Source of the DNA: Candidatus Latescibacterota bacterium
GTDB lineage: Bacteria > Latescibacterota > UBA2968 > UBA8231
DNA: 64,000 bases
NCBI GenBank assembly: GCA_965217585.1
Contig: OZ244561.1
Coordinates: 2,368,001-2,432,000, forward strand
Direction: 5' to 3'
Every line of letters begins with the position of its first letter. Within the stretch, counting starts at the first letter, position 1. The position numbers and the translations under genes were made by a program. Shown one piece after another: positions 2,491 through 11,237 of this stretch. The notes below the pieces were generated by a model. It made no database searches, was not told where the DNA came from, and saw only the letters and a program-made list of their open reading frames with translations.

Positions 2491-2603
2491 ATCAGGTCGC
2501 ACAACCAAGGCGACCTCCAGCCCATCGGACCTCGACCAAGAACCGAGCAGGCGCGGCCAAACAGACGTTGGCCGCAGTATGGAAAGAGTGGGTCTTAGAG
2601 AAT

Positions 2604-2619
2604 GGGGGGGGGGGGGGGG
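2604..2619. repeat. G16 homopolymer (C16 on the LRR gene strand), candidate phase-variation tract
   Basis: aat-G16-taaac, about 200 bp upstream of the 2404 start codon. Confidence 0.9.
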
Positions 2620-2827
2620 TAAACTACTGTTTTTGAACGACTTATGAAATTATATCTGTCGTCCAAAGCTCGGGGCCGGACGCTACATAGGGCCACAGCA
2701 CCAAGCGCTGTCCTATCAGATGACGGGGTATGTACCATTATTTTCGGCCAATATGAATATGCAAATGTCTGCGGTCACTAAAATGCAAACGATTAGGGGG
2801 AAGTCAAGCACGCAGCACAATTTCAGA

Positions 2828-5194
2828 TCAGTAAACTACTGAGACCAACTCGGCAGCCAGCTCGGTGCTCCCATCCCCTTTGACCTTCAACCGCGCTATA
2901 TAATTGCCCGGCGGCACTTGCCCTCCCGTCCCGGTGCGCCCGTCCCACGCCAACCGCAGCGGTCCGGCCATGCCCATCGACTCTACCCCGGCCACGCGCC
3001 GTCCCGCCAAATCGAAAATCTCCAGCTGCACGGGCCGCGCTGTCAAAACATCGACCAGATCCAGTGCGACGACCAACTCGTCGTTGACCCCGTCGCCGTT
3101 GGGCGTCAACACGCTGGGGGCAATGGACATATTGGCCCACAAGGATCGACCCAGCGGCAAGCGCACCACATTGGTGCTGCTTTCCACCAACTCCGCAGCA
3201 TCCCCTGGTTCGACCCGCTGGCGCACGGGCTCGGCCAGACGACTGTCCTCCAGGAACAGCTCAAAGCGAGTGGCGTCGAGGAATATGGCCGCGGCAAAAT
3301 CCACTTCCACCAACTGCCCCGAGCGCACTGGCTGCGGCAATTGCACGGCAAAACCATCCTCCACCGCGGCCACTGCCGCTTCCCGCACCACCCCATCCAC
3401 CCGCACCTGGTCGAACTGCAAATCCGTCGAGGCCTGCACCAATAGTCGGTCAAAGCCGTTGCGCGTGCGCACGGGCCGCACATAGTAGGTGAAAATCTCC
3501 TGCCGGCCCGGTTGCACCAGCACGGGTGCCAGTTCCGCGGCCACCTGCTGGGCCAGGGGCTCGGAAAAATTCAGCACCACCCAATCCAGCAGCGCCCCCA
3601 CCGCCGGATCGCCGGATACCAGCCGCCCTTCCAGCTGCACATAGCGCCGCATGGAGGGCGACTGGAAGGGCTGGTCCGGCTCCAAGTACACCGGACTCCA
3701 CGGACTCCAATCCGCCCCTGGCACAAAGACCGTGTCAATGGGCCCGCGAAAAGAGGGGATGCGCCGCTCCCACTGCCGCTGAGTGATTTCCTTGCCCTCT
3801 GGATTGCGGTATATCACCTCGGTGTCGAGCGTATTGCCCGAGCGGCTGCGCAGCTCCAGATGCGTGCCCCCCGGGGCCTGACCGCCCCAGCGCAAGGCAT
3901 TGATATTCTTCTGTCCCTGTAAATCCAAAATGGGCGAGCGCAGATCTACCTGGACCGGCACGCCGCGGCCAAAGACCTGGAGTTCGGAGATAGTACCAGA
4001 AGCTCCGCAGCCGCGCGCAGCCGCGCCGCCGAACTCGTCGCCGCAGTTGGCGTCCCACGTCTTCCATCTGATGCGCACAAAGCGGACCGGTAGACTGGTA
4101 AAACGGTGATCGGCCAAGCCCTGTACCCGGTTGAGCTGGCCGCCCCAACCGGAGAAGTGCTTGGTCCAGAGCAGCGAGCCGTCCGGGGCCCGCGAACCGT
4201 CCGAGGTCAATACCTCGTAGAAATTGAACGAGAATCCGCGGTACTGGCGGGAAAAGGTGATCAGCCGCACCTGGTCGACCCAGTAAACAGCCCCCAGATC
4301 CAGGGTGATCTGGGCAATCACATCGGCATCGGCCCGGGTCGCCCGGATATTAGACCAGACTGTGCTGATGCGGCCGTCCATCAACTGCAGGGCATTGGCC
4401 AGATTCGGGGTATCGGGCTTCTTGGTATCGACCCCCACGACAATGTCCACGCTGCCGCCTCGCTTGATGGCCCCTTGTACCAGATTGTCGCCAAAGGCCT
4501 CCACCTCGATCTCGACCAGTCGCGCCTCGGGTGCCGCTTTCAGGACCTCTACCCGCACGAAGTGCACTGGGAAGGGCTCGTCCGGGTTCAATTCATAGGT
4601 GATCCGGCGGCGGCGGTCCTCGGTAAAGCGCTCTTTAATCCGGTACGCCAGGGTGCCTTCTATCTGCGTGCGGGTCTCGTCGCGGAACTGTTCGCCGGTG
4701 GACAGCAGCAGATCGAAAATCTCAAAGGGAGGCCCTCGCGCGGAAAAAACCAGATGCACCCGGTGGGCCGAAACCACCCGGCCCAGATCCACTTCGACAA
4801 ACCAGTCCTCGACCCTCTCGTCCAAATCCGGACCCCAGCCTGTGTCCCCGTCCCCGTCCAGCACCCCCGGTGCCTCTAGGGCATTGGAACCCACCCGGCT
4901 GATCCCCCCGCCAAAGGCCACCGCGTCCAGGGCCGCATTGTTGTTCTGGCGCACCGCCACCGGCCGAATGATCCCCTCTCGCGTCAGCTCCACCGCCCCC
5001 AGGGGCAACTCCCACTGGCGCCACTGGGCCGCTGTTGCAAAGCGCAACTCGTCGCCGGCACCCTTTTGCCAAGGGGCCAACAGAATGCCGATGGCGAGCA
5101 AAAACGCCCGGCCTGAATCCATCGCCGCACGACGGAAAATGCCCCCACTCGCCGCCGCATCCCGGCGGATTTCTACTCCCTGCTCCATCGACAC
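2828..5194 (-). CDS. Secreted protein with discoidin/CBM-like segments and a C-terminal FlgD/CHU_C-like domain
   Basis: 788-aa ORF with a hydrophobic signal (AFLLAIGILLAPW), WFVEVDLGRV and ITLDLGAVY motifs, and C-terminal SIAPSVLTPNGDGVND...IFDLAGRRV...WDGR...PGNY. The true start may be downstream (e.g. MDSGR). Confidence 0.75.
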   Translation of the reverse strand: MSMEQGVEIRRDAAASGGIFRRAAMDSGRAFLLAIGILLAPWQKGAGDELRFATAAQWRQWELPLGAVELTREGIIRPVAVRQNNNAALDAVAFGGGISRVGSNALEAPGVLDGDGDTGWGPDLDERVEDWFVEVDLGRVVSAHRVHLVFSARGPPFEIFDLLLSTGEQFRDETRTQIEGTLAYRIKERFTEDRRRRITYELNPDEPFPVHFVRVEVLKAAPEARLVEIEVEAFGDNLVQGAIKRGGSVDIVVGVDTKKPDTPNLANALQLMDGRISTVWSNIRATRADADVIAQITLDLGAVYWVDQVRLITFSRQYRGFSFNFYEVLTSDGSRAPDGSLLWTKHFSGWGGQLNRVQGLADHRFTSLPVRFVRIRWKTWDANCGDEFGGAAARGCGASGTISELQVFGRGVPVQVDLRSPILDLQGQKNINALRWGGQAPGGTHLELRSRSGNTLDTEVIYRNPEGKEITQRQWERRIPSFRGPIDTVFVPGADWSPWSPVYLEPDQPFQSPSMRRYVQLEGRLVSGDPAVGALLDWVVLNFSEPLAQQVAAELAPVLVQPGRQEIFTYYVRPVRTRNGFDRLLVQASTDLQFDQVRVDGVVREAAVAAVEDGFAVQLPQPVRSGQLVEVDFAAAIFLDATRFELFLEDSRLAEPVRQRVEPGDAAELVESSTNVVRLPLGRSLWANMSIAPSVLTPNGDGVNDELVVALDLVDVLTARPVQLEIFDLAGRRVAGVESMGMAGPLRLAWDGRTGTGGQVPPGNYIARLKVKGDGSTELAAELVSVVY

Positions 5195-5233
5195 CCGCTT
5201 CCCCTTTGACAGAGTTTGTGGACATTTATACTA

Positions 5234-5256
5234 ATAAAAAGCGACGCATGCGTCGC
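5234..5256 (-). terminator. Intrinsic terminator closing the ECF sigma / mini-RNAP operon
   Basis: Immediately after the TAG, a perfect palindrome GCGACG-CATG-CGTCGC followed by TTTTTAT on the minus strand. Confidence 0.8.
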
Positions 5257-5258
5257 CC

Positions 5259-8200
5259 CTAGGCCGGCAGCCCTGCAAAGAGCCGGCTGAACAGGCTGGT
5301 CAAGGGCTCGGTCTCGCCGCGCTCGGCCGCCCTAGCAAAGACTACGCCCGGCTGCGCCGCCCTAGCGGCCCGGCCCAAAATGTGGTAATCGGCCCGGCTA
5401 GGCCGCTGGGCCGCTTCCCGCGCCTCGGTCCAGCCCTGGTTGGTGGCGGCCAAACCCCATAGGGCACGCGGTGCCCGCACCTTGGCCTCCTCCACCGACA
5501 GGCCGTCGCGCCAACAACCGCGCTGAGCGAATAGACTACCATCTTCCCGATAGATCAGCCCGCCGCCCACGTATTGGATCAACTGCTGTTGGTTGCCCCG
5601 CGCCCCCGACAGCGCTAACAGGGCTAGGGGCCCCAAGTCGTTGTCGTCGAAATCGGCCTGCTGGTGGAAAGCCGCCACTAATTCGTCGCTGTACATTTGC
5701 CACTCGTCCCAATCGATCTCTGCGGGCTGCTCGGGCCACTCCTTGCCCGAACCGAGGAAGGGGTTGAAGGAGGCTCCAGACTGCTTGCAGACCTCAAAAC
5801 CGCGCCGCGTCAGTCGGTCGAGTACCTCCAGCGCTCGCTCCAAACCCTCGCGCTGCAGCACCTGGACTAGCAAGCGGTTGAGATCGCGCTTGGCGAACAG
5901 CCGGCTGCCATCCACGGCCACTCCGATCAGCCCCTCCACTTCAGCGCGACCTTCCTCCGTGCGGCACAGCCGCGCCAAACCCCATATCATGCCGTGGTAG
6001 TTGTCGGCCACGTAGCGCCATACATCCGCATCGCGCTGTATGTGTCCGGCCACCGACAGCGCGGTCTCGGCTTCGGCCTGGGCTTCCTCAGTGAGGGGCA
6101 AAAACACCTCTATCTGATCGCCATCGAAATCTAGCTCCATCAGTCGGCAAACGCGCGGATGGACGCGCACTGCGGCCCCGGCCAAACGCTGCGGACGAAA
6201 GGCCACCATCGCGGTGGGCGGCACGTGGAACACCGGGCCGTGGCCCTCGTCCACCAGCACCCGCTGGGCGCTGTATAGCAGCACCCACGAGCGTGCCATG
6301 ATCGCGTCCAGAACCTCAGCCGCTCGGGCCGAACGCCGCGCCACTTCCTCGGCGCGATCCATCTCCCGCTCTACCTGAGGCGCGAACAAAGCCCAGGCCA
6401 TTTCCTCGGGCAGGCCCACTTGGTCGAGATTCAACTCAAAACCCGAGGCAAGCGCGGCCCGGCCGCTAAACAGCGGCCTAGCCCGGAAGTGGAGGTGCTC
6501 CGGGCGCAACAACGCAGAAAAAAGATCCTCCACCCGTTGGGCCACCTGGGCCACCGCCGGTCTGACTAGGGCCTCGGGCGCTTCGCTATCGACGATGCGC
6601 TGCAAGCGCGTATTGGCTTCGACCAAATCCTCGAAGCAGCCTCGGATTGGGTCGAACTCGGTCCCCACTGGCAAAGCAACGGGGGATCCCACCGTCCCCA
6701 CTTGGCGTCCTGGGGCCCACGGATGTGGCACTGGGCGGGCCAAGGTCAGCCCCTCGGACTCGGCGAAGGAAAAGCGCAACTCCGCGCTCGCCAACTCGGC
6801 CCGTATCCCGGCCATACCCAGTAGCTGCTGCAACAAGGCAAAGCGCGGGGACGGGGGCGGGGACGGGGATACCGGACCGGTGGCCAAGCACTGGCCCAGC
6901 GCATTGGCGTCGGGCCGCTCGGCCGCGGCCGTGTTGAACAAAGCGTGGATATTGGCTACGGCCCCGGCCTCGCGCAAAGCACCGTAGGCCATCATGTCGA
7001 TTTCCGGTCCGCCGGCTCCTGCCACCGCGGTTTCCAAGCGCTCGGCCGCGGTGTGGGTCAGGCGGCCCCAGTACACCCAACCCACAGTACTGCGATAAGG
7101 CAGCTCCTCGCCTTTGAGGGTCAGTTGCTCCATGCCGTCTTCGGGCAGTCCCGCCTCGACTAGACGCGCTTTCAACATCTCTTCACTGGGTGCCTGAAAA
7201 GGTGGCACCACCGCCGGGTGCCCGGCGGCCTGGGCGAGGCGACCCATGACCGCCTCGCGCTGCTGGCCGAAATTGAGCCGCGAGACCATACTGGTGGGAC
7301 TGAAGATGAGTTCTATCGGCGCACCATCGGGCAACTGCGGCATGTCGGCGTCGGGCAGGATGCGCGTCACCACCCCTTTGGCACCGTGGCGGTTGCTCAT
7401 GCGGTCGCCCACCCCCACTGCGGCGGGAAAATCCATCCGCGCCGCGGCCGACTCGCTAATGACTAAGCCATCCTCAAACGTGTCCCCATCCCACATGATG
7501 AAGGCGGTCAACAGATTGTAGCCACCCCAAAAGTCGACGGCCCCAGGCTCGTATCCCGTCTGCACTAGGGCCGGCTCGGGTTTGTGGCCCTTGGAGGCCA
7601 AGCGTTGGTCGTACTGCTGGCGGAACCAACCCGTGGAGTGGATCGGTGCCGCTGTATCGGCTGCGCTCGTCCACTGGCGCATCATATTGATGCCCATCAG
7701 GGCGCGATTGGTATCGTCGTGTTCGAGAAAGGGCACCATGGAGGCCGAAAAACCCAAGATGCTGTCGGGCGCTTTGTCGATTCGTTCGAGCTTGCCGTCG
7801 CGGATGCGGGCACCGCGGGCCACTTCCAGCACTCGGCCGATATTGGGCCCTTCGGGGGTGCAGTAGGGGCACACTAGGCCGTATTGGCTGTAGGAGAAAA
7901 CGTCTTGGTCGTCAAAAGGCTCGACGACGACGGGGATCAAAGTCAGCCGCCGCAGATGGGTATAGCGGTCCAGCCAGTTGGTCGCCTGTAGATACTGCGA
8001 AGTTTCCTCCAAGTGGAAGTCGCGCAGCCAGGCGTCCAGCGGCAGCCAGTTGCGCACCAAGTCGCCATCCCAAGCCAACTGCTCGGGGGCCGCCTCCAAC
8101 CTTTGGTCAATAAAGTCGTAGAGCTGCTCGCCCACGCACAGAATCCGCGCTTGGTCGAGTTCGCGCCGGTCGGGATAGGGGACCACGACCCGGTAGTTGC

Positions 8201-8432
8201 CTTCAATGTGGAAAAGGCCATCGCGGTCGGGCCGAGGCAAATCCCGGTACTCAACCTCGACCGAGGCATCGCCGAGTCCCAAGCTCAGTTTAATGGAAAA
8301 AGTATAAGAGTCCTGTTGTTCGACTTGATAGTCGGCCAGCGGCAAGCGCTCGCCCAAAAGCCGGGGCAGTCGCTGGTGGACGAAAAGGTCAAAAGATTCC
8401 CTATGCCAAGGTACGTCGAGATTCAATGTCAT
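5259..8432 (-). CDS. Miniaturised single-chain RNA polymerase beta-beta' (RpoB-RpoC)-like fusion protein, 1057 aa
   Basis: Colinear RpoB motifs: [112 protein letters not shown]. These are followed by RpoC motifs: [24 protein letters not shown], FSGR...[51 protein letters not shown]. Confidence 0.93.
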   Translation of the reverse strand: [1057 protein letters not shown]

Positions 8433-9028
8433 TGATGTTCCTCCGGGTTATGGATAGCCTGCCAAGCCTGTGAGAGCTGGCGGCGGCCGTGGTGCAGACG
8501 CGACTTTACGGTGCCTTCGGGAATGCCCAGTCGCTCGGCGGCGTCCCGCACCTCGACTTGGGCGTCGTAGATCAGACGGAAAACCTCGCGCTTGTCCTCG
8601 GACAACTCTTGTACCTGTCGCCGCAGCCAGCGCTGCTGGTCAGCCCACTCCACTTGGGCGTCGGGGCGCTCAGACGCGGCCTCAATCATCCATTCGGGCA
8701 CTTGCTGCGTTTCCTGCTCCACGGTTTCAGACAGCATTTCCAGCCGCTGCTCCCGCCGCCGCCGCACAGTGCGCAGGTGCGTCAGGGAAAGATGAGTAGC
8801 AATGCGGAACAGCCAAGCAGCCACAGACCCTCGACCACTCCATTGGCCAGCCCGGTTCCACACCCGCAAGAAAACCTCTTGTACTACATCGTTAGCACTC
8901 GCATCGTCGCGGACGATGCAGCGCACGTGATGGTGGATCTGCTCCCGATAGCGCTCAAAGAACTGCTGGAACGCGCATGCGTCGCGTTCTTTTATTTGCG
9001 CTATAAGTTGTGGATCCGGTATCTGCAT
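8429..9028 (-). CDS. ECF (group IV) RNA polymerase sigma factor
   Basis: 199 aa with region 2 (ANDVVQEVFLRVW...AWLFRIATH) and region 4 HTH (AAERLGIPEGTVKSRLHHGR). Its stop overlaps the next gene's start (ATGA). Confidence 0.95.
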   Translation of the reverse strand: MQIPDPQLIAQIKERDACAFQQFFERYREQIHHHVRCIVRDDASANDVVQEVFLRVWNRAGQWSGRGSVAAWLFRIATHLSLTHLRTVRRRREQRLEMLSETVEQETQQVPEWMIEAASERPDAQVEWADQQRWLRRQVQELSEDKREVFRLIYDAQVEVRDAAERLGIPEGTVKSRLHHGRRQLSQAWQAIHNPEEHQ

Positions 9029-9045
9029 CGAGGCCTCTGCAGATA

Positions 9046-9073
9046 AAGACGCCGCCCGGAAAGTACAGGTTCA
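9046..9073 (-). promoter_or_regulatory. ECF-type (probably autoregulatory) promoter TGAACC-N16-CGTCTT
   Basis: Minus strand TGAACC tgtactttccgggcgg CGTCTT lies about 18 nt upstream of the sigma ATG. It matches the AAC(-35)/CGT(-10) ECF consensus with a 16-nt spacer. Confidence 0.7.
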
Positions 9074-9128
9074 AGGGCGAAGGTGAAAAAGCCCGGAAAT
9101 CTCATTGAAGGCTGGCTTCCTCCTTGAG

Positions 9129-9156
9129 TTGACCCACTAGTCGAGCATGGTATTTT
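9129..9156 (+). promoter_or_regulatory. Possible sigma70 promoter for the divergent PhyH operon
   Basis: TTGACC-N16-TATTTT with a TG extended -10 element. Confidence 0.35.
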
Positions 9157-9329
9157 ACAGCAGTCCTGAATGACTTGAACGATTCGATAGGCGGATCGTC
9201 TTGTGAATATTATTCTGCGTCTGTCTGCGTCCATCTGCGGATCATCTTGTGAATGGTTTTGCTATACCACCCACCGCCTGAAGACCAGCTTCAACCCTTA
9301 CAGGCGCTCTTGCGCCAGATCGAGACCCC

Positions 9330-10286
9330 ATGAGCCTAACGCCAGCCCAACTCGACCAATTCCACCGCGACGGCTATATCATCGTTCCCGACCTATTCAC
9401 GGCTGACGAGATGGACGCTGCCCGAGCGGCGATGGAACAGACTTTCTACGGCCAATCCTTCCAGCAATGGCTGGCCGATTGCGACCGCGGTGAAGCGGCC
9501 GGGGTCTCGGACGGCTTCACCACTACGCACGACCACTCCGAGGGACGCTCGCAATTTCCCGTGGGCGCACCGGCCTTGGATCGGCTGATAGAAAACGAGA
9601 CGTATCTCGACATTTTTGAGCAATGCCTAGGCGCAAAAGCCAGCTACTGCAACGCCCACCTTTTTATGCGCTCGGGGCCTACTGACAAGCGCCATCCCGA
9701 CAATCCCTGGGAGGGGTACCACATTGACCACTACACCAATTGCCTGCTGCCGCCCCACGACCAGACAGGCCGTTTTGACTACGTCAATTCGGGGGTGTAT
9801 CTGCACGATGTCGAAGACGACGGTGCCCCCATGCTGCTCATCCCCGGCTCGCACAAAGTAGCTGGCCCCGCTTTTGTGCGGGCACTTGCCCAAGGCAACG
9901 CCGCAGGTGGGTCCTTCAAAGACCTTCGCCAAGCCACCGAACTGGCTGCCCCGGTTCCCGCCACTGGCCGACGGGGGACGGCTGCGTTCTACTCGTCGTA
10001 CCTAGTCCACGCAGCGCAACCCTTTGCCAATAAGCGCACGCAGCGCGCCTTTTGGACCTTGTCCATGTGCCGCTGCGACAACGATCGCTGGACCCGATTC
10101 GCCAATCCCTTCATCTACGGCGAACGCGAGCACATGCTGCCCTTTTTCACGGCCACCACGCCCCGAGTGCGCGGCCTGTTCGGCTGGCCCGAACCCGGAC
10201 ACCCGTACTTCACCAGCCAAACCTTGGACCTCTTGGAACATACCCTACCCGGTATTGATACAGGCCCCTATCGCGATGACAGTTGA
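9330..10286 (+). CDS. Phytanoyl-CoA dioxygenase (PhyH) family Fe(II)/2OG oxygenase
   Basis: LTPAQLDQFHRDGY, YHID (HxD), IPGSH and distal LVH. Confidence 0.9.
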   Translation: MSLTPAQLDQFHRDGYIIVPDLFTADEMDAARAAMEQTFYGQSFQQWLADCDRGEAAGVSDGFTTTHDHSEGRSQFPVGAPALDRLIENETYLDIFEQCLGAKASYCNAHLFMRSGPTDKRHPDNPWEGYHIDHYTNCLLPPHDQTGRFDYVNSGVYLHDVEDDGAPMLLIPGSHKVAGPAFVRALAQGNAAGGSFKDLRQATELAAPVPATGRRGTAAFYSSYLVHAAQPFANKRTQRAFWTLSMCRCDNDRWTRFANPFIYGEREHMLPFFTATTPRVRGLFGWPEPGHPYFTSQTLDLLEHTLPGIDTGPYRDDS

Positions 10287-10325
10287 AAGACAGCCAACTA
10301 TGAATCGAGAGGTGGTTTCTCATCT

Positions 10326-11237
10326 ATGACTCCGACAATCACCCTGCGACAAAAAGTAATAGAAGGGGCCCAAAAAGGGCCCAACCTGCTGCTCCTAGGC
10401 GGCGTCCACGGCGACGAATTCGAGTCTATGGCAGCCATCCGCCGCCTGCTGGACCACCTCGACCCAGCGGCCTTGCGGGGCCGCCTCACCGCTATCCCCG
10501 TAGTCAACGAGGCCGCCTATTGGCGCGGCCAGCGCACAGCCGAGGACGAGCTGGACTTGGCCCGCACCTGCCCAGGCCGGCCCGACGGCTCGATCACCGA
10601 GCGCACGGCCCACGCCGTCAGCCAGGAAATCCGCCGGGCCGACTATCTCATCGACCTGCATAGCGGCGGGCTAGTCATGGAATTCTACCCTACCGTGGGG
10701 TACTCCCTGCATCCCGATAAAGCCGTCCTCGACGTGCAACGGCGCATGGCCCGGGCTTTGAATATGCCCATCATCTGGGGCACCTCGGCCCGGCTCGACG
10801 GACGCACGCTCTCGGTGGCCCGCGACGCCAACGTGCCGGCCATCTACGCCGAGTGGATGGGGAGTGGTACGTGCGATCCCCGGGGCGCGGATGCTTATTT
10901 CGAGGGCTGCCTGAACGTCTTGGCCGAACTGGATATGATCGACCGCATCCTGCCGCCCCTGCACACCGAGTACACCGTGGAGGACGACCGCGACAACGCA
11001 GGTCACATACAGATCAATTACCCGGCGCCTTTTGCCGGTTATTTCGAGCCCCAGGTAACATTGAAGGCACCCGTGCAACCGGGCGATGTGATCGGCACGG
11101 TGGTCGATCATCTGGGGCAGCGGCGCGAGGAAGTGGTATCGACCCAAGCGGGCTTGATCCTGTGTCTGCGGGTCTTCAATCGCGTCCACCAGGGCGACAG
11201 TTTGGCCGCGGTTTTGGAACTCGACCCTTCCCAATGA
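10326..11237 (+). CDS. Succinylglutamate desuccinylase/aspartoacylase (M14-like) family protein
   Basis: GGVHGDE, DLARTCPG and IDLHSGG motifs. Confidence 0.9.
   Translation: MTPTITLRQKVIEGAQKGPNLLLLGGVHGDEFESMAAIRRLLDHLDPAALRGRLTAIPVVNEAAYWRGQRTAEDELDLARTCPGRPDGSITERTAHAVSQEIRRADYLIDLHSGGLVMEFYPTVGYSLHPDKAVLDVQRRMARALNMPIIWGTSARLDGRTLSVARDANVPAIYAEWMGSGTCDPRGADAYFEGCLNVLAELDMIDRILPPLHTEYTVEDDRDNAGHIQINYPAPFAGYFEPQVTLKAPVQPGDVIGTVVDHLGQRREEVVSTQAGLILCLRVFNRVHQGDSLAAVLELDPSQ

Follow-up and report, generated by a model that had tools for sequence, protein, structure and literature searches.

This analysis concerns a 64,000-nt stretch of DNA, hereafter the window, from a Candidatus Latescibacterota bacterium (contig OZ244561.1, positions 2,368,001 to 2,432,000). 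The locus of interest appears to pair, as a two-gene module, an autoregulated extracytoplasmic function (ECF) sigma factor with a one-chain 'skeleton' of the RNA polymerase (RNAP) core, in which a trimmed beta part and a trimmed beta' part are joined in one protein (here called the mini). In the reading that is put first, which is plausible but tentative, the window's mini is a sigma-capturing mimic of the RNAP core that stands in the position of an anti-sigma factor and whose catalysis is doubtful. This reading is put first because the fold, the sigma partnership, the promoter and the clamp-helix motif persist while the window's branch loses catalysis. In the window's clade, selection most likely acts on sigma capture rather than on RNA synthesis, and the window's mini is probably a pseudo-polymerase in this lineage. 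Because the active site is intact in the wider family, the ancestor was probably a true mini-polymerase complex that depended on sigma, and it is assumed here that the majority of this family are, or were, genuine sigma-dependent mini-polymerases.

In the proposed scheme, the sigma factor, when bound to the normal core of the host, would fire a promoter of the form TGAAC-N15-GGNGTC, leading to expression of the sigma factor itself, of the mini and of any gene inserted in or behind the operon. The ordinary ECF geometry of this promoter fits the use of the host core. The mini would then capture the sigma factor by its coiled coil, a surface that is also offered by the host beta', and the sigma4 domain of the captured sigma factor would be left without its usual anchors on the flap and the Zn-binding domain. 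The mini would act as an anti-sigma factor in both operon position and job, as a core mimic that buffers or gates its own sigma factor.

Architecture of the single-chain core

The mini is a protein of 1057 aa encoded at 5259-8432 on the minus strand, as are all features of the module, and its start overlaps the stop of the sigma gene by 4 nt (ATGA), so that translation of the two genes is coupled. Three Pfam domains are found in it, Rpb2_3 (residues 146-210, 6.5e-07), Rpb2_6 (best stretch 340-467, 3.7e-32) and Rpb1_2 (residues 741-792, 8.9e-13); Rpb1_1 and Rpb1_5 were not found by Pfam. The NCBIfam models for rpoB, rpoC and the rpoBC fusion all match the mini, all far under their cut-offs. With phmmer, residues 128-470 match beta chains in the PDB (E 2e-46) and residues 652-831 match beta' chains (E ~1e-21). 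These matches identify the mini as a fusion of beta followed by beta', with under half of the usual length, and the first of the two phmmer values places its homology to beta far beyond chance.

The ordinary rpoB (1264 aa, L055:821-4615) and rpoC (1362 aa) of the host, which lie elsewhere in the genome, served as the yardstick for the trimming, and the mini is 30-45% identical to these subunits in the conserved blocks. The first 138 residues (8019-8432) are a family-specific remnant of the beta N-terminus/protrusion, as judged from model superposition, regional ratios of nonsynonymous to synonymous substitution rates (dN/dS) and conservation. In the family alignment, W9 and H10 are invariant, as is P571 further on. 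The beta fork region follows at residues 139-210 (7803-8018; TSQYLQATNWLDRYTHLRRL...TPEGPNIG), the part detected as Rpb2_3, and BLASTP and hhalign align it with host beta 456-531 and residues 199-269 with host beta 577-654. BLASTP further aligns residues 300-327 with host beta 747-774 and residues 339-538 with host beta 1030-1246. Host beta 775-1029, the flap of 255 aa with the acidic ED pair on one side and the GDK...NKG motif on the other, is swapped for about 11 residues in the mini, a short linker at residues 328-338 (7419-7451) that is placed by both BLASTP and hhalign. The same gap was obtained by hhalign of the family profile (probability 100, E 2.9e-44, 455 columns). The linker is flanked by active-site residues: the beta acidic pair E320-D321 (7470-7475), aligned with FEDAIV of host beta, and the two basic residues of the beta barrel, R344...K352 (7377-7403), aligned with host GDKMAGRHGNKG.

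The junction from beta to beta' is a sheet at residues 539-590 (6663-6818) that contains LARPVPHPW and has no Cys cluster; four strands (E543-582) are predicted here by AlphaFold2 (AF2). It is followed by the clamp coiled coil at residues 591-641 (6510-6662), predicted as helices H591-615 and H620-641 and aligned to host beta' 267-310. Residues 600-1004 align with host beta' 267-774 (BLASTP; hhalign probability 99.8, E 3.3e-30). Most of beta' 1-266 is gone, the Zn-binding Cys cluster included, and the host cluster (CHCGKY...CDRCG) has no counterpart in the mini in the alignments to host beta'. Only the strand motif after this cluster survives, as GHIELAVQVSHIW in the host and LTLARPVPHPW in the mini, a match made by eye. 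The Mg-binding triad D768-F-D770-G-D772 (6117-6131), aligned with host NADFDGD, is intact. The bridge helix (AF2 helix H980-1008) occupies residues 980-1008 (5409-5495), and the homology to host beta' ends just inside it, at about residue 776 of 1362. Since only about 50 residues lie beyond this point, there would be no room for the trigger loop or the rest of Rpb1_5. The last 70 residues gave no BLASTP alignment with the C-terminal part of host beta', and a by-eye likeness of the mini C-terminus to the host ...GRLIPAGTG region was discarded for this reason.

The AF2 model of the mini, built on 50 homologues, has a mean per-residue confidence (pLDDT) of 90.4 and a predicted template modelling score (pTM) of 0.88, with pLDDT < 50 at residues 725-736, which belong to a clade-specific insertion. 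Residues 1-550 superpose on whole beta/Rpb2 chains (for example 9dvs_C, Z 27.4, root-mean-square deviation 3.0, 522 residues aligned), and about 520 beta residues are kept. The model contains no additional domain that might represent a flap moved to another place.

Compared in sequence with normal RNAP subunits, the mini is thus a protein without flap, Zn-binding domain or trigger loop and with most of the lobes missing, in which the two catalytic barrels, the clamp coiled coil and the bridge helix remain. Given the fusion, the alpha scaffold would in principle be unnecessary. A preliminary description of 6520-7480 (residues ~318-638), made from the letters alone, had already claimed the absence of the flap and the Zn-binding domain and the retention of the clamp helices, and it proved right in every testable particular. 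The peptides quoted in it are all present in the translation of 5259-8432: the one ending in NRHGAKG covers residues 319-353, SPRFALLQQLLGMAGIRAEL residues 528-547, LARPVPHPW residues 564-572, and FEDLVEANTRLQRI... runs from residue 600 on.

The sigma partner, its promoter and their conservation

The sigma factor (199 aa, 8429-9028) consists of a sigma2 and a sigma4 domain only, in agreement with the definition of ECF (group 4) sigma factors. Both domains were detected by Pfam (Sigma70_r2, 2.6e-15; Sigma70_r4_2, 5.3e-14), and the TIGR02937 model matches with 101.8 bits against a cut-off of 42.9. In ECF holoenzymes of solved structure, as described in the accessible text of PMC6648896, sigma2 is bound on the beta' clamp helices and sigma4 on the flap-tip helix, and the linker between them, which is highly divergent among ECF sigma factors, runs through the cleft and leaves by the RNA exit channel. 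In the present family the linker is unusually conserved, with P111, W113, P122 and E127 at >=90% in an alignment of 50 sigma factors.

An ECF-type promoter, TGAACCTGTACTTTCCGGGCGGCGTC, is located at 9048-9073, about 20 nt 5' of the sigma ATG, and was recognized by motif conservation (-35 TGAAC, 15 nt, -10 GGNGTC). The motif is found 5' of the sigma gene at the same spacing in 35/38 loci, across phyla, and all but 2 of its 37 matches in 511 kb of loci lie at this place. From the sequence, the promoter is of ordinary ECF architecture, with -35 and -10 elements at fixed spacing. The strict motif is not enriched in the host's own 7.3-Mb genome (11 matches versus 24 in the reversed control). A position weight matrix built from 15 diverse instances gave one match at >=22 bits, the module's own promoter, versus none in the control, and three versus five at >=14 bits. 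Because neither search shows an excess beyond the module's own site, the sigma factor appears to have no other detectable target in the genome, although degenerate or -10-only promoters are possible.

Full-length relatives of the mini of 1000-1075 aa are numerous, with about 100 representatives in a 50%-identity library before the first true rpoBC fusions of 2000+ aa appear (E 5e-61). By record titles they occur in Latescibacterota, Poribacteria, Chloroflexota, Armatimonadota (Capsulimonas), Hydrogenedentes and metagenome-assembled genomes (MAGs) labelled Gemmatimonadota. The preliminary description had tied the mini to an ECF sigma factor, and this link is borne out widely: a sigma gene is located directly upstream of the mini in 34/38 loci. 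The other four are a deletion (L006), a truncated copy (L011) and two loci with no upstream sequence in the fetched region (L022 and L025). Only sigma and mini are conserved between the window and the 14 loci compared with it. Among 168 genomes of the phylum, both genes are present in 62, the mini only in 3, the sigma only in 1 (at a contig edge) and neither in 102. For these counts the mini was scored by its family-specific N-terminus (65/168 genomes) and a cognate-grade sigma factor by E <=1e-25 (63/168), and since the genomes are kin, the counts describe the co-occurrence rather than test it. The mini gene is patchy, occurring in 21/30 genomes of the window's own genus, and it is single-copy in the window's genome. 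In G071, a genome of the same class, two sigma-mini modules lie on contig 1, one at 1.43 Mb and the other at 3.37 Mb, and both have a sigma gene of their own.

Neither a small anti-sigma open reading frame (ORF) nor a third conserved gene was found between or beside sigma and mini in divergent loci, and no anti-sigma domain was detected in the mini by Pfam. Long open frames in G150, G159 and G166 that resembled sigma-mini fusions turned out to be separate overlapping ORFs, and no fusion-sized member of about 1250 aa occurs in the homologue listings. Contigs from three RNA libraries of two studies, 90-97% alike to the window, cover parts of both the sigma and the mini gene; these contigs come from relatives, with DNA carry-over possible, so that the start site or level cannot be read from them and the uncovered parts are uninformative.

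The coiled coil of the mini shares N607, R609, L610, R/K612 and A618-P619-E620 with host beta'. Among 135 dereplicated family members, N607 is conserved in 113, R609 in 108 and P619 in 129. The E. coli equivalents of these residues, such as R275, are presumably needed for sigma binding. A complex prediction with mini residues 290-1057 (residues 1-289 were omitted to respect the size limit) and the sigma factor gave a score of 0.56, versus 0.00 for the best of three controls, with the runs agreeing in >=52% of contacts and a partner pLDDT of >=68. The mark set for this method was reached by 58/80 solved complexes and by 2/110 mismatched pairs, and scores that passed at <=0.60 came from only 7/80 solved complexes and from both passing mismatches. 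The result was graded as weak support for binding of the sigma factor by the mini, and because sigma-RNAP complexes are among the solved structures, the pass may reflect memory or likeness only. The part of the preliminary description in which the mini could bind the sigma factor by region 2 is consistent with this prediction, to the same weak degree.

Erosion of the active site and the competing readings

The state of the active site was surveyed in 177 members of 900-1250 aa, of which 48 are near-duplicates of the window's mini; shorter fragments and longer proteins were dropped. The window's mini itself has DFDGD, ED and R344/K352 (with K changed to R at the first basic position), together with the switch-2 SGR and the bridge helix. 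In the motif NRAPTLH, Y-S-A-Q is found where the host has N-R-A-P, and M-E-L precedes the triad instead of N-A, so that the N of NADFDGD is replaced by E. The replacement of R-A-P falls at residues 721-737 (6222-6272), where S-A-Q is accompanied by the low-confidence clade-specific insertion. Most family members keep R-A-P and the N, but both changes, R-A-P to S/G-A/G-Q and N to E, occur in the window's mini and in relatives that are at least about 51% identical to it, with an insertion at the same spot. The R of NRAPTLH is kept in 108/177 members overall: among members >=53% identical to the window (n=58), 57 are without the R and 58 without the N, whereas elsewhere the R is kept in 107/119. 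The R and P of this motif (Rpb1 R446 and P448) are listed among eight residues common to all two-barrel polymerases in the accessible text of PMC2919709. The invariant Arg and Pro of the NRAPTLH-type motif are both absent from the window's mini. The replaced R and N are residues that we take to contact the sugar (ribose) of the incoming nucleoside triphosphate (NTP).

In a FastTree phylogeny of 135 dereplicated members, midpoint-rooted, the window's clade, in which R-A-P and N are replaced, is monophyletic, and the Asp triad is broken in at least four lineages within it. DDN is found in P0061, in P0063/P0068 and in P0056, and S/Y-DD in P0060/P0062; in addition, K352 is changed to T, V or Q in three lineages of the clade. 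All proteins with a broken triad or K352 are still full-length, and the locus encoding a Y-DD protein (L027) keeps its sigma gene and promoter. Of 13 proteins chosen to represent the clade, only 7 have an intact triad, whereas all 13 retain N607 and 12 retain R609. Purifying selection is evident among the close relatives of the window, with dN/dS of 0.13-0.18 for the mini and 0.05-0.14 for the sigma factor. By region, and pooled over 11 non-independent pairs, the least constrained parts are the beta' barrel (0.256) and the bridge helix (0.256) and the most constrained part is residues 1-138 (0.087). This is the reverse of normal polymerases, in which no parts are more strongly conserved than the beta' barrel and bridge helix. 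In the majority clade, whose members are at 35-50% identity, the active-site motifs hardly vary. This pattern of sequence change suggests that the window's clade is losing its active site and that catalysis is doubtful there.

Several points weigh against a sigma-capturing mimic. A protein of 1000 aa with a preserved active-site architecture would be an extravagant anti-sigma factor. The window's mini and all of its ~50 close relatives keep DFDGD, ED and R344/K352; in the whole set the Asp triad is intact in 166/177 members, ED in 160/177 and KK or RK in 166/177. For the binding that the reading presupposes, the complex prediction described above gives weak support. A loop of sigma factor and decoy with no second promoter has no visible output in this genome except for the variable genes in or behind the operon. 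In L006, an intact mini is kept although its cognate sigma gene is deleted. The midpoint rooting of the tree, the non-independent pairs behind the regional dN/dS and the assumed nature of the ribose contacts also lessen the force of the erosion argument. The preliminary description had posed an either/or, in which the mini would recognize promoters in a non-canonical way or sequester the sigma factor as a decoy. The decoy side is favoured by the lost active-site residues in the window's clade and the broken triads of its sisters, but a pure decoy fits poorly with the fully intact active site in most of the wider family, and non-canonical promoter recognition fits poorly with a conserved promoter that has -35 and -10 elements in the usual ECF arrangement.

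A doubtful but possible alternative is that the mini is an active, self-contained minimal RNAP with the ECF sigma factor as its dedicated initiation factor, forming an orthogonal transcription machine. In this case sigma2 would sit on the clamp helices and the conserved linker would replace the flap and Zn-domain anchors, and the pair would fire its own promoter and read into whatever is downstream. This is the main rival because the window's own triad is intact. It would account for the full set of active-site elements in the window's mini (DFDGD, ED, R344/K352, switch-2 SGR and bridge helix), for the intact triad in the large majority of members and the near-invariant motifs of the majority clade, and for the tight co-occurrence of sigma and mini and the conserved sigma linker. 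The module's own promoter as the only detectable one would also suit a private polymerase, and the complex score, with its weak support, is compatible with such a holoenzyme. In addition, YonO, a chain of ~100 kDa that is only very distantly related to multisubunit RNAPs, is described as processive in the accessible text of PMC5467207. However, the window's clade is without R-A-P and without the N by the triad, and sister lineages with otherwise intact proteins have lost the catalytic Asp or Lys, with the active-site regions the least constrained of the protein. The fixed spacing of -35 and -10 is set by the flap-to-clamp distance of a normal core, and the mini has no flap. With the beta lobe, the walls of the RNA exit channel and the trigger loop lost, efficient promoter-dependent synthesis would be uncertain.

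It is unlikely that the sigma factor, on the host core, only switches the gene on and that the mini is a sigma-independent enzyme acting on nucleic acids, such as a primer- or RNA-templated polymerase or a polymerase whose sugar specificity has shifted with the replacement of R and N. The deletion locus L006 (G168/G143) speaks for such an enzyme: ~5.4 kb are missing, including sigma gene and promoter, the mini ORF (1047 aa) is intact, and the cognate sigma factor is absent elsewhere in the genome, where the best ECF match is 30% identical. The presumed role of the replaced R and N as ribose contacts would also agree with it. Two-barrel enzymes include RNA-dependent polymerases (accessible text of PMC2919709) and the DNA polymerase PolD (accessible text of PMC7708050). 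Against this, the L006 deletion took the promoter too and may be recent, and the broken triads in sister lineages argue against metal-dependent polymerase activity there. Furthermore, the residues of the clamp helices on which sigma docks in canonical beta' are conserved, and the 62/3/1 co-occurrence fits a partnership better than mere regulation.

A more remote variant, which we consider quite improbable, is that the mini is a target-mimic receptor, which holds the sigma factor on its clamp helices until an attacker of RNAP, such as a natural-product inhibitor or a phage anti-RNAP protein, binds to it. The freed sigma factor would then go to the real core and turn the operon on, giving more decoy and cargo, such as the ABC exporter of one clade. 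In such a receptor catalysis would be dispensable while the fold and ligand pockets are preserved, as in the pattern of the window's clade. Finally, a decaying, functionless rpoBC duplicate, which might be read from the broken or truncated copies (L011, L024 and the split ORFs in L031), is hardly credible and is contradicted by the selection and conservation data, with intact ORFs of ~1000-1070 aa in several phyla, dN/dS of 0.13-0.18, a conserved partner and promoter and a confident AF2 model.

Neighbouring genes and relation to known systems

Sigma-capturing mimic or not, the module travels with variable neighbours. In one clade, a gene is inserted between sigma and mini. This is a fused ATP-binding cassette (ABC) exporter (ABC_membrane and ABC_tran, ~590 aa) in L062 (3848-5641, minus strand) and in L064 (1533-3293, plus strand), and a protein of 381 aa with no clear family in L063 (3967-5112, minus strand). 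In the window, a protein of 788 aa is encoded at 2828-5194 (minus strand), in which Pfam finds an F5/8 type C domain, an FlgD-Ig-like region and a CHU_C (type IX secretion) tail. This gene lies 64 nt downstream of the mini on the same strand, with no terminator-like minus-strand site in the gap. Its product has no match in the 14 other loci, and it is absent from the otherwise syntenic L001. From this arrangement, it is possible that the gene is a co-transcribed cargo of the module. On the other side, at 9330-11237 (plus strand), a divergent PhyH-family dioxygenase and an AstE/AspA-type deacylase are encoded, which are syntenic with L001 and lie outside the module.

Some copies of the module are damaged. 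In L011 (G146), the sigma gene and the first ~93 mini codons are missing, and in L024 the first 60 sigma codons lie beside the last ~300 mini codons. In L031 and L037, both from Chloroflexia MAGs, the mini is split into two or three ORFs, by frameshift or assembly error. Upstream of the window's promoter, an intergenic dispersed repeat of ~100 nt is located at 9156-9259, with 27 matches in the own genome, of which ~20 are near full length at 80-94% identity, and with contig depths of up to 793 in RNA libraries. A structured RNA in this region (9150-9265) was considered and dropped, with a z-score of 0.27 and no structure signal, and the sole Rfam match over 2500-9600, ZNRD1-AS1_2 with 27.4 bits versus a cut-off of 60, was taken as chance.

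A mobile or viral origin of the mini was rejected. Its N-terminus has no match in 50,697 phage records or 72,556 plasmids, no relatives in IMG/VR were confirmed by the family profile, and PADLOC assigned no family to the mini; the sigma factor gave one marginal helix-turn-helix-type match there (E 2.7e-4). In the ESM Atlas, the mini family forms two clusters of 73 and 135 members with generic names only. Further clusters of fused Rpb2_6+Rpb1_2 proteins of 1221-1787 aa, mostly named 'hypothetical', are present in the same resource. The diversity of fused beta::beta' proteins is therefore wider than the mini family, which suggests that other undescribed reduced beta::beta' families exist beyond this one.

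Canonical RNAP and the mini share the two barrels, the fork, switch 2, the clamp coiled coil and the bridge helix, but the mini is one chain of 1057 aa versus 1264 + 1362 aa and lacks the flap, Zn-binding domain, Rpb1_1, Rpb1_5 and trigger loop. Full-length beta::beta' fusions (NF007172/NF011417) have the same order, beta then beta', and are known as the only polymerase of their cell. In contrast, the mini is an accessory copy in a host with normal rpoBC, and it scores 157.1/147 bits with models of ~2840-2890 positions whose cut-offs are 5372/4632 bits.

The mini resembles YonO of the Bacillus prophage SPbeta as a single chain of ~100 kDa with both barrels, and YonO-type enzymes also have no flap (sandwich-barrel hybrid motif, SBHM) insert according to the accessible text of PMC7824862. 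However, YonO is described as only very distantly homologous to multisubunit RNAPs (accessible text of PMC5467207), while the mini is plainly a reduced bacterial beta/beta', and all its significant matches are cellular beta or beta', in a comparison that did not include the YonO sequence itself. No sigma partner is mentioned for YonO in the literature found, whereas the mini family is paired with one. The yeast killer-plasmid protein Orf6 (Rpb2::Rpb1, 982 aa) is likewise fused, roughly half-deleted and of similar size, as described in the accessible text of PMC2919709, but it is of eukaryotic-type origin, is located on a cytoplasmic linear plasmid and has no sigma factor. The non-virion RNAPs of jumbo phages (phiKZ, AR9) are also reduced homologues of bacterial-type RNAP with a promoter-specificity subunit, and the AR9 enzyme recognizes its promoter by its own mechanism (accessible text of PMC9209446 and PMC4666361). 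These enzymes differ from the fused, flapless mini in that they are split polypeptides, phage-encoded and, according to the accessible text of PMC7824862, keep the flap insert.

The operon is also comparable to those of ECF sigma and anti-sigma factors, which are autoregulated with the sigma gene first and the partner directly 3', where the partner would occupy the core-binding surface of the sigma factor. The difference is that the mini has no anti-sigma domain and is a homologue of the sigma factor's own target. Mimicry from the sigma side exists in PhyR, which carries a sigma-like domain (Pfam PF22029), and we know of no core mimic that regulates a sigma factor.

No account of a reduced, fused beta::beta' chain that is accompanied by an ECF sigma factor was found in full-text searches or in the accessible text of PMC7826278, PMC2919709 and PMC7824862, a scope that leaves ECF classification supplements and subscription journals outside. 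Mini and sigma together would be a new and widespread version of the two-barrel polymerase, one whose sigma partner is obligate.

The general view is that bacteria possess one multisubunit RNAP. The chromosomal family described here (~100 clusters at 50% identity, in 65/168 genomes of the phylum and in other phyla) is a second, one-piece version of RNAP of ~1000 aa, which is tied to a sigma factor and a promoter of its own. If active, it would be the smallest known sigma-programmed polymerase and a natural orthogonal transcription unit, and it would put to the test why polymerases need a flap, a Zn domain and a trigger loop. As a mimic, it would represent a new type of sigma control, by a copy of the sigma factor's own target, and a clear case of an enzyme turned pseudo-enzyme with its partnership kept. 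Both outcomes would be surprising, and a choice between them could be made with two cloned genes and a single promoter.

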